Virus record (IMG/VR): IMGVR_UViG_3300025875_000003
Span: 32,001-96,000 of that record
Length of the DNA: 64,000 nucleotides
Source: a virus
Reading direction: 5' to 3' (one strand)
Positions 4,121 to 38,765 of the stretch are shown piece after piece. Positions within the stretch are counted from its first letter, which is position 1; each line of letters begins with the position of its first letter. The translations under genes were made by a program, and so were the position numbers. Under the pieces are notes generated by a model, which did no database searches, was not told the DNA's origin, and was given only the letters and a program-made list of their open reading frames with translations.

Positions 4121-4459
4121 ATGAGCAATCGAAGGATTGATCGGAACACCACAGTTCACACCGAACTGCCCGATCTCTGTATCTGGCTGCCTGCCTCAAA
4201 TGCACCCTCAGGTTTGGTGTTCGAGCCCACGTCAGTCTCCGAATACCTGAGCCAAGGGTGGCCTAGGTGGGGATACCGCGTAGTGTTCACAGGCAGTCTA
4301 GAGGATTCCTACACGGACACTGTGGGCTCTGCTATCTACGGGGACCGTGGCTGGCCACTAGACCGGATTCCCGAGGCTCTGAGGCCCTTCCTGGCAGGCG
4401 AGGATCGTCTTGCAGGACCATACGAGGATATCGGTACACTGGGTACACCAGCCCGATAG
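4121..4459 (+). CDS. hypothetical protein
   Basis: GGAGG RBS. Confidence 0.65.
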   Translation: MSNRRIDRNTTVHTELPDLCIWLPASNAPSGLVFEPTSVSEYLSQGWPRWGYRVVFTGSLEDSYTDTVGSAIYGDRGWPLDRIPEALRPFLAGEDRLAGPYEDIGTLGTPAR

Positions 4460-4503
4460 ACCCTATGTCAACACCATACTGAGTCCCGTAGGGACGAAGA
4501 GGA
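4457..4503. repeat. 47-bp duplicated hairpin element, copy 1
   Basis: TAGACCCTATGTCAACACCATACTGAGTCCCGTAGGGACGAAGAGGA; 44/47 identical to 35451-35497. Confidence 0.9.
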
Positions 4504-18097: not shown

Positions 18098-18901
18098 ATG
18101 AGTATGGTTAACAAGTATGCAGTAGCAGTAGGTATCAACAACTACCCAGGCACTGGTTCTGACCTTCGAGGTTGCGTTAACGACGCCATCGATTGGACAG
18201 ACCATCTCTCGTCTTTGGGATACAAGGTGCTGACCCTTACAGATGAGCAGGCTACCAAGACAGCAGTCACTAGCGCTCTGCGTGAAATGATGGCCATGGC
18301 CCGGTATCGAGATAAGGTCGTGTTCACCTACTCTGGCCACGGCTCCTGGGTTCCTGACAGGGGAGGCGATGAGGCTGACAGCCGAGATGAGGTCTTGGTT
18401 CTTCATGATTTCGACCGTGGAGGGCTACTTTCGGACGACGAGATGAATACGATTTTTTCCAATCGTCGTTTTGGTGTTAAGCCCACTGTTATCTCGGATT
18501 CTTGTCATTCGGGTACCCTGACAGATGTTCGTGGACTAGAGGCTGTGCGAACTTTGAAGCATTCTGTGGTGGACGCTGCTCCTCGCTTTCTCTCTCCGTC
18601 TCACTTCCTTGCGTCAGAGGACGTTCCTGCGGCACTAGAAGTCGAATCTAAGGCTCCCAGGGGGGCATCTAGACCTACCACCGCTCTTTTGTCGGGCTGT
18701 GACGACCCTGAATTTTCTTACGATGCATACATCGATGGCCGTTATCGAGGAGCATTCACAGCAGCCGCTTTGAAGACGTGGGTTCCTGGCATTACTTTGA
18801 GAAAGTGGCATGAAGCGATTAGGCTTTACCTACCTTCTAACCAGTACCCACAAAGCCCCCAGATTGGTGCAACGTACCCCCAGCGGTTCTGGACTCTCTA
18901 A
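18098..18901 (+). CDS. metacaspase / caspase-family protease (peptidase C14)
   Basis: GINNY..LRGCVND, YSGHG (His81), SDSCHSG (Cys136), GAFT, QSPQ. Confidence 0.92.
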   Translation: MSMVNKYAVAVGINNYPGTGSDLRGCVNDAIDWTDHLSSLGYKVLTLTDEQATKTAVTSALREMMAMARYRDKVVFTYSGHGSWVPDRGGDEADSRDEVLVLHDFDRGGLLSDDEMNTIFSNRRFGVKPTVISDSCHSGTLTDVRGLEAVRTLKHSVVDAAPRFLSPSHFLASEDVPAALEVESKAPRGASRPTTALLSGCDDPEFSYDAYIDGRYRGAFTAAALKTWVPGITLRKWHEAIRLYLPSNQYPQSPQIGATYPQRFWTL

Positions 18902-32062: not shown

Positions 32063-33307
32063 TCAGGTGAGGTAGCCAGTCCTCACCTGATTCACCAGTC
32101 CGGTGAACCCGGTGACCTTGTTCTCCACGAACAGGCCTCTCTTGTCCGTCTTGGTGTCGTCTCCGATCCGTAGCACAATATCGTCATCAGAGACGACACC
32201 AAGTAGATCCATCAAATTCTTGTGATTGGTGGTAAGAGCCTTATTGCCCTTAGGGCCGGACCAAGCCACGGGCAATGTCTCCCTGGCGGAATTACCTATG
32301 CGGTCTCGGGCACTCACTGTCAGATTCCACGACGTACCGTCAGAGGTTGTCTTACCAGGCATCAAAGTCAAGAACAGAGTCTGATATTCGGGATCAGCAT
32401 TGATCCGAATTCTCTTGACAGACTCCAAGAGATCTTGGCGATTAACCGCGAGAGTGTGCTGGTTGGTCAGAGAGGGACCAAGAATGTAATTGGTGATGTC
32501 CGGAAATGGTGTAGTTGTTCTCTGAGCAATCAACTCATCCTCATCCACCTTGAAGTACAGGTGAGAAGAATTGCCGCCCAGGGTTACGGTTTCCGTCACC
32601 GAGAGTCGCAGCAGTCGGATCACTTCATCGGCTACCCGCAGCGGGATCGTCAGATCCAGGTCGTAAGGCAAATTCTCTACAGTCTGACGGTGCATGCGTT
32701 GTCCGTCCATGGCAGCGACAGCCCCATGGCGCAAAAGCAACTGACTCAGGGCAGCCCGTCCAGCAGAGACTGGAGCAGCCTTTCTAGCGATGCTCAGAGC
32801 CGCCAGGAGCGGCGTAACTAGCAGGGTGTGGGTCTTGATACCACTTACGTCTGCACAGGGCGGCAGAGAGTCACCTACGGGTGTTGCTACGGACCACTGT
32901 GCACGACCAGAGCGCACAGTCGCTGTGTTTCCCAAGACCTCTAGGGCAGCAGTTCCGGTGGGAGCCAATTTTAGGATGCCCACGATCTTCTTGGGCGGGA
33001 CCAGAGCAGCGCCTGGCATCTGAACCGTAATGCCATCAGCCACAGCAGAGACAGTCAGGTCTCCGTCTGTAGCGGTCACTTTGATGTACGCGGCAGACGA
33101 AGTGCTCGCTGCAAAGGCTTCGATCAGTGCATGCCCCGTACCGGCGATGATTTCCTTGTCCGGCGTTACGGAAGCGGCCCGCTCGAAAAGGCTCAGAATA
33201 GATGCTACGGGACCACGCAAGGCTAGGCGCGCATCTACAAGCAAAATCTCTGGAACGAGTTCTTCATCCTCGTTGGTTGACTCAGCCAAGTCAAGAATTG
33301 TGGTCAA
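32063..33307 (-). CDS. dnaN: DNA polymerase III beta sliding clamp-like protein
   Basis: three-domain size; AAMDGQRM, FPDI and VNRQDLLESVKRI segments. Confidence 0.8.
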   Translation of the reverse strand: MTTILDLAESTNEDEELVPEILLVDARLALRGPVASILSLFERAASVTPDKEIIAGTGHALIEAFAASTSSAAYIKVTATDGDLTVSAVADGITVQMPGAALVPPKKIVGILKLAPTGTAALEVLGNTATVRSGRAQWSVATPVGDSLPPCADVSGIKTHTLLVTPLLAALSIARKAAPVSAGRAALSQLLLRHGAVAAMDGQRMHRQTVENLPYDLDLTIPLRVADEVIRLLRLSVTETVTLGGNSSHLYFKVDEDELIAQRTTTPFPDITNYILGPSLTNQHTLAVNRQDLLESVKRIRINADPEYQTLFLTLMPGKTTSDGTSWNLTVSARDRIGNSARETLPVAWSGPKGNKALTTNHKNLMDLLGVVSDDDIVLRIGDDTKTDKRGLFVENKVTGFTGLVNQVRTGYLT

Positions 33308-33546
33308 GACGACTCCTCCAGTGCGGTCTCGACAGCCGCAAGTTCCTGAGCCAGTTCTTCTTCGAGTTCCTTCAACTTGGCGGCAGCCTCTTCAGGCGTG
33401 CTCACGCCAAATTCCTTCAGGGCGCTAAGTGCCGCATCACGCTCACGTACTGCGTTATCATGTTCTACCTCTGCGCGGGCGCGTGCAGAGGTAGCAGCAG
33501 TGATTCGAGTTCGCAGAGATGTCAGGGTTTCTTCAGTGGAGGTCAT
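33304..33546 (-). CDS. short coiled-coil protein
   Basis: heptad A/E/L-rich helix. Confidence 0.7.
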   Translation of the reverse strand: MTSTEETLTSLRTRITAATSARARAEVEHDNAVRERDAALSALKEFGVSTPEEAAAKLKELEEELAQELAAVETALEESS

Positions 33547-34424
33547 AGTAGTGGTACGCCTGTCTCTCCTCCGAAGGAAACCCTTCTGCGGCCCTTAGAA
33601 TCGAGCACGGGCTGGAACTTAGAACAAGCGTGCTTAACCTCGCAAAAGTGACATTCCTTGAAATCTCTGCGAGGAGGATGTTCATCATTCCAGATATCGC
33701 GCGCCATGCCAGAAACTCGCTGCATCATCTCAGCGCTCTTCTGCTCAGTGATGATGAAGGGCTTGACCTGCTGTTGACACAGAGGCTGAAGAAGACCGGT
33801 ACGAACAGTGCCCTCGCCAAAAAGCAGCCGAACCGCAAGATCATAGAAAGTTAACTGACCTTCCGTCTTTCGCCAGTAATCATTGTCTCGGGTATGCTTT
33901 ACGTCCCACACCCACCAACGTTCCTTGTCATCTCGCACAAGAATGTCCATGAAGCCTCTAAGAATGACCGTCTCGGTCCCTCCTGCGGGATGAGGAACTT
34001 CGACGGGAGCCTTGAAAGAGAAATCGGGCTGATACTCATAGGGAATGACGTACTTCCAAAGAGCAGGCTCAATCTTCGTAACAGCCTCAATGCAGTCGCG
34101 AATTACCTGTTCGCGGTCGCCCGGATTCTTCCACGCAATGGAACCACCCTCTTCCTGAATGGTGGCCCACTCTCGATCTATGACAGATTCCACCATCTGT
34201 GCCATCACGCCGCGCCGAGGATCTCCCGAATCTAATAGGTCACGGACCACTCTGTCCGTGACAGTCCCAGGGAAGAAGCCACGAGAATCCTGAATGGCAG
34301 CCTTGCGGCCCTCTCTAACGTGAAAACTTCTTTCCTTGCAGGTGTCGTGGGTCCGCAACGCTGACCAACTCAGATACAACGTCACATTACCGCACTCTCT
34401 GCAAGGCTTGGAAATAAGGGACAT
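33543..34424 (-). CDS. Cas4/RecB-like PD-(D/E)XK exonuclease
   Basis: GFMDILV...WDVKHT, QLTFY, CHFC...C. Confidence 0.88.
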   Translation of the reverse strand: MSLISKPCRECGNVTLYLSWSALRTHDTCKERSFHVREGRKAAIQDSRGFFPGTVTDRVVRDLLDSGDPRRGVMAQMVESVIDREWATIQEEGGSIAWKNPGDREQVIRDCIEAVTKIEPALWKYVIPYEYQPDFSFKAPVEVPHPAGGTETVILRGFMDILVRDDKERWWVWDVKHTRDNDYWRKTEGQLTFYDLAVRLLFGEGTVRTGLLQPLCQQQVKPFIITEQKSAEMMQRVSGMARDIWNDEHPPRRDFKECHFCEVKHACSKFQPVLDSKGRRRVSFGGETGVPLL

Positions 34425-34440
34425 CAGACCATTCTACAGG

Positions 34441-34803
34441 TCAGAGGATCTCGTACTGAGAAGCCAGTTCATGAATCTGTGCTTGCACAGACAGCGGAAG
34501 CGCGTAATTCTTCTGCACGAACTGCATCTGCCCGTCCTTGATCACGTCGTCGTGGACAGCGATGACAACAGCAGCCAGGTCTTCCTCTTCCTTAGCCGGA
34601 ACAGCGGCCACAGGCTCGACGTAGTACTCCACTCCCGTATCGAAACTCGTGAACACGCTGAAGTTACCAAGAGTGCCAGTAGGGATCAGGCTGGAGTCGT
34701 CTGCCGCAAACACTGCGGCTTCATGCGCGTTCACTGCGGTAACGTAGGCGTCATCTCGACCATTAGTCACTACGCACCACTCGGGCAGATTCGGGTCAGT
34801 CAT
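34441..34803 (-). CDS. hypothetical protein
   Basis: GGAGGACACC-ATG on the minus strand. Confidence 0.7.
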   Translation of the reverse strand: MTDPNLPEWCVVTNGRDDAYVTAVNAHEAAVFAADDSSLIPTGTLGNFSVFTSFDTGVEYYVEPVAAVPAKEEEDLAAVVIAVHDDVIKDGQMQFVQKNYALPLSVQAQIHELASQYEIL

Positions 34804-35414
34804 GGTGTCCTCCAATACTCGCTGTACGGATTGTCGAAGTCGAGCATAGCGTCGAGGGGTGACATTTGCAATCCTGCCAGTTCGTAGATTCCCCACGGGA
34901 TGTGAGGCTCTACCGGCTTAGCCTGCCTCAGCATCTCAGTGAGACGGCCGATGGCCGAGGCTTTTATCATCCGGCGCAGACGCGAGACAGTCGATGGGGA
35001 GCAGCCGATGGCTTCAGCAGCCTTCTTGATACTCAGGTGAGCATGCTTGGCCAGGTCAGCGACGTGGAAGCGACGAGACTTCAAACCTCGCGTACGCTGG
35101 ATCTGTGAGAACTCAGCCGGATCATAGTTGTTGAGCACGAACTGGACTACACTCTCGATGATGTTGGTCGCCTGAGACTCCGTAACACGAGAGCCAAGAC
35201 CCTTGTTAATGCCGCCACCAGTGAAGTGGTCGTAGTCACTGACCACATAGCGTGCTACCTTGTTCCAGCAATACTCCTCCAGCACATCGTGCGTCAGAGG
35301 CAACCCAGAACGCAGAGCACGGTAGGACCACTTGATGAGCCATACGTTGACTTGCTGGGCAAAGGTACGCTTAGCGTACGGAACTGCCTTGGGAGTGGGG
35401 ATACTTCGAGCCAT
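34800..35414 (-). CDS. ColE2/pAL5000-type Rep C-terminal fragment (PriCT-like plus HTH), no primase domain
   Basis: WLIKWSYRALR, ESQATNIIESV, FSQIQRTRGLKS, then an HTH GCSPSTVSRLRR. Confidence 0.6.
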   Translation of the reverse strand: MARSIPTPKAVPYAKRTFAQQVNVWLIKWSYRALRSGLPLTHDVLEEYCWNKVARYVVSDYDHFTGGGINKGLGSRVTESQATNIIESVVQFVLNNYDPAEFSQIQRTRGLKSRRFHVADLAKHAHLSIKKAAEAIGCSPSTVSRLRRMIKASAIGRLTEMLRQAKPVEPHIPWGIYELAGLQMSPLDAMLDFDNPYSEYWRTP

Positions 35415-35450
35415 GCTAGTGATACGCCGATGTGCTTTGAGAGAGAAAGT

Positions 35451-35497
35451 TAGACCCTATGTCAAAGCCATACTGAGTCCCGAAGGGACGAAGAGGA
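35451..35497. repeat. 47-bp duplicated hairpin element, copy 2
   Basis: TAGACCCTATGTCAAAGCCATACTGAGTCCCGAAGGGACGAAGAGGA. Confidence 0.9.
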
Positions 35498-35523
35498 CGC
35501 CATAGTGTGCTATTATCAAAGGC

Positions 35524-36078
35524 ATGAAAAGAGTTACGTTGATAGACCTCATTAGAGTAGGTGTAGTGGGGCAGAAGAGCGCTGATGCCTTGTGGGATAG
35601 GTTTTACAGCAATGTTGATGTTCGTGAAGAGCAGGAGTGTTGGGAGTGGAAGGGACCGCGCACGAAGGACGGCTACGGTTACACCACTCTAGGTTCCGGT
35701 TGGAAACTAGGTACACATCGAGTCTCGTTTCTTCTAACGCAGGGTTGGTTGCCTACTGTAGACGATGATGAACAGATATTGGTAGTCCGCCACATTTGTG
35801 ATAATCCTCCTTGTGTTAATCCCCACCACCTTACCTATGGTACACATTTTGATAACTATGAGGACGCAGTGGCTAGAGGCAGACACAGAGGTTTCGGTGT
35901 TCTCACTCCAGAAGACAGATCTAGAAATGGTAAAGAATACGGGGTGCTTGGTCGGAAGTACACTGTGGAAGACTTAAATCGCTGCGAGGGGCTGAGTCTA
36001 CGGCAGAGTGCGAAACTTTTGGGATGTGGCACCGCTACTGTGTCAAGGCTTAGAAGAGAAGCCCGTGCGGCAACTTAG
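35524..36078 (+). CDS. HNH endonuclease with a C-terminal HTH
   Basis: CWEWKG..DGYG, HRVSF, VRHICDNPPCVNPHHL..GTHFDN; leaderless after TATTAT. Confidence 0.9.
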   Translation: MKRVTLIDLIRVGVVGQKSADALWDRFYSNVDVREEQECWEWKGPRTKDGYGYTTLGSGWKLGTHRVSFLLTQGWLPTVDDDEQILVVRHICDNPPCVNPHHLTYGTHFDNYEDAVARGRHRGFGVLTPEDRSRNGKEYGVLGRKYTVEDLNRCEGLSLRQSAKLLGCGTATVSRLRREARAAT

Positions 36079-36098
36079 AACGACCTTCGATCTCAGGG

Positions 36099-36128
36099 CT
36101 TGCACATCGAGCAGCACTGCACTATGAT
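36099..36128 (+). promoter_or_regulatory. variant of the repeated promoter driving the tRNA array
   Basis: TTGCAC-ATCGAGCAGCACTGCAC(17)-TATGAT. Confidence 0.75.
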
Positions 36129-36206
36129 GGAACCATCCACTTCACGAGAGTGGACAGAGATCTTGCTACCGCCGCACACCACGGAGCATGGCGCGGGGTT
36201 CTCTGA

Positions 36207-37278: not shown

Positions 37279-37355
37279 GGCGGGTGTAGTTCAATTGGCA
37301 GAGCGTCGGATTGTGTCTCCGAATGTTGCGGGTTCGAGTCCCGTCGCCCACCCCA
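37279..37355 (+). tRNA. tRNA-His(GTG) with G-1 and an encoded CCA
   Basis: TCGGA-TTGTGTC-TCCGA; G-1:C73. Confidence 0.88.
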
Positions 37356-37356
37356 A

Positions 37357-37429
37357 GCCCCCTTAGCCCAACGGCAGAGGCATCGGGTTTAGGTCCCGAC
37401 CAGTGCGAGTTCGAATCTCGTGGGGGGCA
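37357..37429 (+). tRNA. tRNA-Leu(TAG), short variable loop
   Basis: TCGGG-TTTAGGT-CCCGA. Confidence 0.85.
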
Positions 37430-37469
37430 CCCTGTTGTGGTTGGTACTAACACGTGCGATAATCAAAGT

Positions 37470-37949
37470 GTGGCTACCAAGTACACCAGAGAAGTCTTGC
37501 AAGAGGCTGTAGACAATAGTACATCTGTGATGGGTGTAATTCGGTATCTCGGTCTTCAGCAGGCTGGGGGTACGCATACCCACATAAAGTCCAAATTACG
37601 AAGTCTAGGGGTAGATACCTCCCATTTTACGGGAGGCTCGCACAACAGAGGTAAGACTTCTCCACGCAGAAAGACTGCCAGCGCCATTTTGGTGGTGCGT
37701 CCTCCAGGTTCCGCACGTCTACCTGCTGCTCAACTTAGAAGGGCGCTGGAGGAGTCTGGTGTTGTCCCTGTTTGCTCCTGCGGAGTTGGAAGAGTTTGGA
37801 ATGGTATTCCTATTCAGTTGGAGGTTGATCACATTGATGGTGATTGGCTAAACAACTTAAAGGAAAATCTAAGATTTATGTGTCCAAACTGTCATTCTCA
37901 GCAGTCTACTAACAAGAGTTGGAAGACTAAACGAAGTGGTGTAGAATAG
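37470..37949 (+). CDS. HNH endonuclease within the tRNA array
   Basis: CSCG...LEVDHIDGDWLNN..ENLRFMCPNCHSQ; leaderless GTG 6 nt after GATAAT. Confidence 0.9.
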   Translation: MATKYTREVLQEAVDNSTSVMGVIRYLGLQQAGGTHTHIKSKLRSLGVDTSHFTGGSHNRGKTSPRRKTASAILVVRPPGSARLPAAQLRRALEESGVVPVCSCGVGRVWNGIPIQLEVDHIDGDWLNNLKENLRFMCPNCHSQQSTNKSWKTKRSGVE

Positions 37950-38391: not shown

Positions 38392-38477
38392 CGGTGGTTG
38401 TCGTTTAATCGGCAGGACGTGTGCCGTTTCTAGAACGGGTAGTCGCATATGCGGGTTCGAATCCCGTCAACTACTGG
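38392..38477 (+). tRNA. atypical tRNA with a CTA (amber-reading) anticodon
   Basis: 9-bp acceptor CGGTGGTTG/CAACTACTG; CCGT-TTCTAGA-ACGG; canonical T-arm. Confidence 0.6.
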
Positions 38478-38657: not shown

Positions 38658-38730
38658 GCGCCTCTAGTTTAATGGCAAAACCCCTGACTTTTAATCAGTG
38701 AGATTCTGGGTTCGAATCCCAGGGGGCGCA
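38658..38730 (+). tRNA. tRNA-Lys(TTT)
   Basis: CTGA-CTTTTAA-TCAG. Confidence 0.88.
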
Positions 38731-38765
38731 CTTTCTTTTCATGGGTACAACGACGTATCACTAGT

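Follow-up and report, generated by a model that had tools for sequence, protein, structure and literature searches.

Two genes in a large phage genome stand head to head, carry similar helix-turn-helix (HTH) segments and enclose a short repeated element. Do they form one system that acts at a common site, or are they two genes with separate histories that share a divergent promoter region? The window that we analysed is a stretch of 64,000 nucleotides, bases 32001-96000 of a complete IMG/VR virus record (IMGVR_UViG_3300025875_000003; 124,313 bp). The leftward gene, ORF204 (34800-35414, minus strand; 204 aa), and the rightward gene, HNH184 (35524-36078, plus strand; 184 aa), were confirmed as open reading frames, and 109 bp separate them. 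An initial annotation of the locus had read them as a Rep fragment without a primase and an HNH nuclease with the same recognition helix, and had proposed that both target the same sequence, whether as an origin binder with a nickase, as a guard/nuclease pair or as a self-regulating homing element.

The HTH match itself is as it was described. The ungapped 35-aa alignment joins residues 114-148 of ORF204 (34971-35075, minus strand) to residues 144-178 of HNH184 (35953-36057, plus strand), with 16/35 identities and an identical final heptad, TVSRLRR; BLASTP lengthens it, still ungapped, to 20/56 (43.9 bits, pairwise E 2e-10). When each 56-aa segment was compared with 50,697 phage records nothing scored above 35 bits, and when the profile of the ORF204 family was run over all 124 kb in six frames it scored in two places only, at ORF204 (251 bits) and at the HTH of HNH184 (54.6 bits), so the match exceeds generic HTH likeness. 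The statement that both genes end in this HTH does not hold for ORF204, where the segment is internal. The best weak phage matches of both segments (33-35 bits) are genes annotated as DnaQ-like DNA polymerase III subunits in the Microbacterium phages A3Wally, Cece, Big4, Zooman and Pumpernickel (186-195 kb genomes), which hints that a related HTH is fused to an exonuclease in those phages.

Judged by profiles and a predicted fold, ORF204 (34800-35414, minus strand) is a stand-alone protein, homologous to the DNA-binding domain of ColE2 Rep and lacking the primase; it consists of a PriCT-1-like helical bundle (residues ~13-115), an HTH (115-165) and a poorly modelled tail (166-204). The suggestion that the leftward protein corresponds to the C-terminal PriCT/HTH half of a ColE2-type Rep is thus borne out, with profile, profile-profile, fold and tblastn comparisons in agreement. 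The family profile, built on an alignment of 22 members with 23-63% identity, has its best sequence match in the PDB to 3vw4, the ColE2-P9 Rep DNA-binding domain with its origin (E 6e-4), and the AF2 model of ORF204 (pLDDT 82.9) has the same entry as its top Foldseek match (probability 0.99). VIA-align places residues 13-115 on Rep residues 170-259 of 3vw4 with a Z of 8.3, two units above the next row, and finds that residues 115-165 resemble sigma region 4 and related HTHs (Z 4-5). With hhalign, ORF204 matched a plasmid Rep carrying Replicase, PriCT_1 and HTH_23 domains (95.6% probability, E 1.3e-8). The alignment runs from residues 27-146 of ORF204 to 185-299 of the Rep and overlaps the latter's Pfam PriCT_1 (175-238) and HTH_23 (269-301) domains, so that the HTH that follows the PriCT-1-like region of ORF204 is aligned with the Rep HTH. 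In a tblastn search of 72,556 plasmids, all 28 weak matches (28/28) fell within or adjoining rep genes of small enterobacterial plasmids; the Rep aligned by hhalign is one of these. The weak sigma region 4 matches led us to consider ORF204 as a sigma factor; this was rejected on the grounds that its N-terminal domain matches the DNA-binding domain of Rep rather than sigma region 2, and that a separate phage sigma factor exists.

The module order of ORF204, a PriCT-1-like bundle then an HTH, is that of the ColE2-P9 Rep domain (PDB 3VW4), but the two proteins also differ. ORF204 has no AEP primase and an extra 56-residue tail, the Pfam PriCT_1 model does not match it (Pfam scores the HTH only, as HTH_23 with E 9e-7), and it belongs to a large phage, in which it heads a nuclease/clamp operon and in which no ColE2-like origin sequence was found. 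No match to the AEP primase domain (Pfam Replicase, PF03090) was found in ORF204, among the 22 family members or in any part of the phage genome. The family is also rare, with three close relatives of ORF204 among 5.8 billion proteins and 54 profile matches among 1.84 billion representatives. Descriptions of PriCT-1/HTH modules treat them as appendages to primases. A primase-less PriCT-HTH architecture is already in the databases, in stand-alone Bacillota proteins with PriCT_1 and HTH_23 (an ESM Atlas cluster of ~260 aa), whose likeness to ORF204 is a feature score of 0.89 only and thus a lead. In ColE2 Rep, the PriCT-1 and HTH part is reported to bind the origin and to be able to unwind it independently of an NTPase (PMC5862659, citing Itou 2015; PMC5304414).

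The leftward operon runs from ORF204 through ORF120 (34441-34803, minus strand), a Cas4-like PD-(D/E)XK nuclease (33543-34424, minus strand) and an 80-aa ORF to a sliding-clamp-like processivity factor (32063-33307, minus strand), its last gene. ORF120 is translationally coupled to ORF204 by an ATGA overlap, with GGAGGA upstream; the idea that it might be a hidden primase found no support. Read from the sequence, a phage-specific bipartite promoter, ACTTTCT ... CGTATCACTAG, lies at 35415-35450 (minus strand) and abuts the ORF204 ATG, so the ORF204 mRNA is predicted to be leaderless. The promoter occurs in four copies, at window positions 35415-35450 (minus strand) and 38730-38765 (plus strand) and at genome positions 113716-113751 and 111253-111285; these copies head DNA-metabolism operons, and in 3/4 of them, including that of ORF204, the start codon is abutted. 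With its native composition (GC3 0.65), ORF204 is thus by prediction a leaderless, co-regulated gene of the replication module. Among cultured phages the nearest relative is Magritte, a Microbacterium phage with a clamp-like protein 43% identical to the one here. Its genome retains the nuclease-clamp operon and lacks both ORF204 and HNH184, and the gene at the head of its operon and a nearby HNH are unrelated to ours. ORF204 is therefore an exchangeable accessory of the lineage and not a core gene.

The remainder of the replication gene set comprises a PolA-type polymerase, a UvsX-like recombinase, and clamp and clamp-loader genes, and the phage also encodes an SNF2 helicase and its own sigma factor. 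A DnaB-like helicase is split by a LAGLIDADG-type intein or homing endonuclease (genome 114684-117248; 82684-85248 in window numbering). Across the whole genome there were no matches to the Replicase, Prim-Pol, Toprim_4, Toprim_2 and DnaG_N models, and the sole primase-like signal is a sub-threshold DnaG zinc-ribbon match at genome positions 122380-122562, far from ORF204. As far as sequence models can tell, this is a phage without a recognisable primase. The cumulative GC skew rises monotonically across the genome, is uninformative, and gives no origin signal near ORF204 and HNH184.

On the other side of the gap, domain, PHROG and fold matches identify HNH184 (35524-36078, plus strand) as a His-Me-finger/HNH homing endonuclease, with a nuclease domain at residues ~20-125, a disordered linker (126-145) and a three-helix HTH (148-183). 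It matches zf-His_Me_endon and HNH_3, together with PHROG endonuclease families at E values down to 1.8e-23; residues C39, H90, C92, C97, H102 and N111 of the catalytic beta-beta-alpha-metal core are invariant among its relatives, and the nuclease core has alignable relatives in 1,512 phage records and among genomic and metagenomic HNH_3 proteins. The nearest folds to its AF2 model (pLDDT 82.3, low confidence in linker 126-145) are I-PpoI and I-HmuI. At 0.43-0.45, its GC3 falls short of the genome mean (0.61 +/- 0.08) by two standard deviations and equals that of a second HNH endonuclease gene (37311-37949, plus strand), unrelated to HNH184, that sits inside a neighbouring tRNA array. HNH184 is sporadic in distribution, being found in one relative and missing from the syntenic place in Magritte. 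That homing endonucleases reside in the tRNA regions of phages is well established (PMC2330249, PMC2988022, PMC10448857). Sequence and fold model together thus make HNH184 a free-standing homing endonuclease, foreign in composition, that borders the array.

The array itself comprises 18 of the 19 tRNA genes of the phage (36207-38731) and includes a CUA-anticodon tRNA (38393-38476) that ARAGORN assigns to Pyl. The listed start of the second HNH gene overlaps tRNA-His and tRNA-Leu, so that translation probably begins further in. A variant of a repeated early host-type promoter (36098-36138, plus strand) stands after the HNH184 stop, ahead of the array. HNH184 probably has a host-type, leaderless promoter of its own: a putative extended -10, TGCTATTAT (35508-35516, plus strand), stands 7 nt before its ATG. 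The combination of TGCTATTAT, 7 nt and ATG occurs twice, at window positions 35508-35526 and genome positions 110858-110876, the second copy standing behind a terminator and starting a 53-aa ORF, which suggests a minor promoter class in the phage, leaderless and with an extended -10. The HNH184 homologue of the relative begins five residues later and its N-terminus is conserved, which supports the long reading frame. A 16-codon GTG-initiated ORF (35505-35555, plus strand) overlaps the HNH184 start out of frame, beginning 7 nt past the Shine-Dalgarno-like end of the repeat in the gap, and could be an upstream ORF or meaningless.

The HTH of HNH184 does belong to the ORF204 subfamily, matching the family profile with 97% probability (E 4.8e-11). 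It takes the place of the C-terminal module usual in the nuclease's own family: relatives of the nuclease domain either have another module at the C-terminus or align over no more than 45-61% of HNH184, and among 5.8 billion proteins an ORF204-type HTH on an HNH nuclease was seen only in HNH184 and in protein P0005 of the relative. The further step, that the same helix means the same target, does not follow. TVSRLR is invariant in all 22 family members, and the family motif GCSxxTVSRLR is kept even at 23-30% identity to ORF204; as a family-wide signature, the helix cannot by its identity show a common target in this phage. The HTH of HNH184 also aligns better with five distant family members (scores of 102-114) than with ORF204 (95), and the residues before the invariant helix are SPS or STA in the binders and GTA in both endonucleases. 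At the DNA level the two HTHs agree in 47/105 nt, and codons differ at 6/7 positions of the TVSRLRR heptad, and on this codon evidence a recent duplication or gene conversion between them was rejected. Given an HTH closer to the family than to its neighbour, differing codons, and an HTH-coding part as low in GC3 as the nuclease part, the fusion is old, and it probably arose in another genome.

The gap holds, as was claimed, a 47-bp element that is repeated near the left end of the window. The two copies, at 4457-4503 and 35451-35497 (both plus strand), are 44/47 identical, sharply bounded and set in unrelated flanks, and they are the only two in the genome. Copy 2 lies between the core promoters of ORF204 and HNH184, adjoins the -35 element of the former, and ends in an SD-like GAGGA. 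Copy 1 is 31 kb distant, in an unrelated spacer where two early genes run in the same direction: it begins with the stop codon of the first (112 aa), and 11 nt separate its end from the ATG of the second (44 aa), for which its 3' end is the ribosome-binding site. The "duplicated hairpin site" of the initial annotation is therefore half right: the duplication is real, while the hairpin is a mere 5-bp stem with a 3-nt loop (35477-35489 in copy 2) of unremarkable folding energy (z of -0.8 and -1.8 for the 47-mer segments and -3.0 for the whole gap, plus strand). No match to the 47-mer was found in viral contigs, metagenomes or GenBank phages, and no Rfam family matched within the 109-bp gap. The ColE2 origin 35-mer, a query validated in 544 plasmids, matched neither the 47-mer nor the phage genome significantly, and the element was rejected as a ColE2-like origin. 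Other short leader/promoter duplications occur in the genome (families D1, D2 and D11). Conservation over 47 bp and a place at the ORF204 -35 element would suit a binding site, and the length and asymmetry of the element would suit a monomeric binding mode like that of ColE2; it may be a putative protein-binding site or a duplicated leader cassette.

What, then, explains the adjacency? Only two HTHs of this type exist among ~176 genes, and the chance that they would adjoin is roughly 1%. Homologues of both ORF204 and HNH184 (63% and 73% identity) lie on contigs of 38,255 bp each, which suggests that the one close relative found also has the pair. In Magritte neither gene is present. The juxtaposition suggests that something has kept or caused it. 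As the simplest causal account we infer that an endonuclease inserts near the site that it recognises, so that an HTH of Rep type would lead it to a gene of Rep type. A functional link between the genes, for instance HNH184 homing to a site of the binder, would be plausible.

We favour, with a probability of about 60%, the ordinary reading that ORF204 and HNH184 are two separately explicable genes with a common divergent promoter region. ORF204 would be made as the leaderless first product of the nuclease/clamp operon, alongside the other DNA-metabolism operons, and by analogy with the ColE2 Rep domain would most likely bind, and perhaps locally open, a specific site, either in replication or in control of its own operon. 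In HNH184 the usual C-terminal DNA-binding module of its family would have been swapped for an ORF204-family HTH, and the shared helix would be a family signature dating from an old domain acquisition, neither a recent copy of its neighbour nor proof of a common target. That the pair is a dedicated two-gene system is not demonstrated. The two genes may instead be linked by their target, a tentative and less probable alternative: the Rep-type HTH of HNH184 would read an ORF204-type site, an origin or operator in the gap and perhaps the 47-mer, and HNH184 would home beside the binder's gene, with ORF204 occupancy or sequence differences protecting the resident copy. Homing endonucleases of the free-standing kind cut close to where they are inserted (PMC2330249, PMC2988022), a helix that does not vary in the family could recognise a conserved core site, the ORF204 promoter has the 47-mer at its border, and both the adjacency and its recurrence in one relative would be accounted for. 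On this account, however, the second 47-mer would be a target within the phage's own genome, the residues preceding the invariant helix differ between binders and endonucleases, and by alignment score the HTH of HNH184 is no nearer to ORF204 than to distant family members. The stricter claim that both proteins read the same site, whether the endonuclease homes to the initiator's origin or operator with the binder protecting it or supplies a replication-starting nick, we consider doubtful.

The nicking variant in full would have ORF204 open an origin that it binds in the gap, and HNH184, drawn there by its HTH of like type, nick that origin for a 3'-OH in place of the primase half of Rep; it seems to us very unlikely. 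It would make sense of a genome whose one primase-like signal is sub-threshold, and many phage HNH enzymes do nick (PMC3428280), but in its foreign composition HNH184 equals the HNH within the tRNA array, an evidently selfish gene; it probably uses its own host-type promoter and not the DNA-metabolism promoter, and, like ORF204, is missing from Magritte; nor does the skew indicate an origin here. It would strain belief slightly further if the adjacency had no cause at all and the 47-mer were one more duplicated leader cassette of a kind common in the genome; families D1, D2 and D11 and the ribosome-binding site at the end of copy 1 would be in keeping with this, against which stand the ~1% chance and the recurrence in the relative. 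Least probable of all is a guard/nuclease pair, in which ORF204 would shield the phage's own sites and HNH184 would destroy rival phages or plasmids whose sites are unprotected. Adjacency and the common HTH type are all that speak for it, whereas ORF204 is embedded in and co-regulated with the replication operon, the promoters are divergent and separate with no coupling of the toxin-antitoxin kind, and no known defence or anti-defence system was matched: PADLOC recognised no system component in either protein and returned only a generic 'homing endonuclease' model (E 0.008) and an HTH fragment.

Under the ordinary reading each gene has its own interest. ORF204 would represent a small undescribed family of primase-less PriCT-1/HTH proteins, here within a phage replication operon, and by analogy this suggests that the origin-binding and unwinding half of such initiators may work alone or with other partners. 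HNH184 resembles T4 SegB and the HNH_3/I-HmuI-like and I-PpoI-like enzymes in joining a His-Me-finger nuclease by a flexible linker to a small DNA-binding domain, and it resembles free-standing phage homing endonucleases in its foreign composition and its intergenic place beside a tRNA cluster (PMC2330249). Unlike those enzymes it carries as its DNA-binding module an HTH of the Rep-DBD subfamily. It would be a natural case of modular retargeting, a homing nuclease with an initiator-type HTH beside a gene of that very type. Should one site prove common to both proteins, the locus would give a concrete example of a replication control site being the target of a selfish nuclease, and a compact, asymmetric protein-DNA recognition pair to study; were the nick reading true, the pair would amount to a split counterpart of the ColE2 initiator, primed by a nick, in a phage where no primase is recognisable. 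Elsewhere in the window, at 18098-18901, the phage encodes a caspase-family protein (Peptidase_C14, E 1.3e-23).
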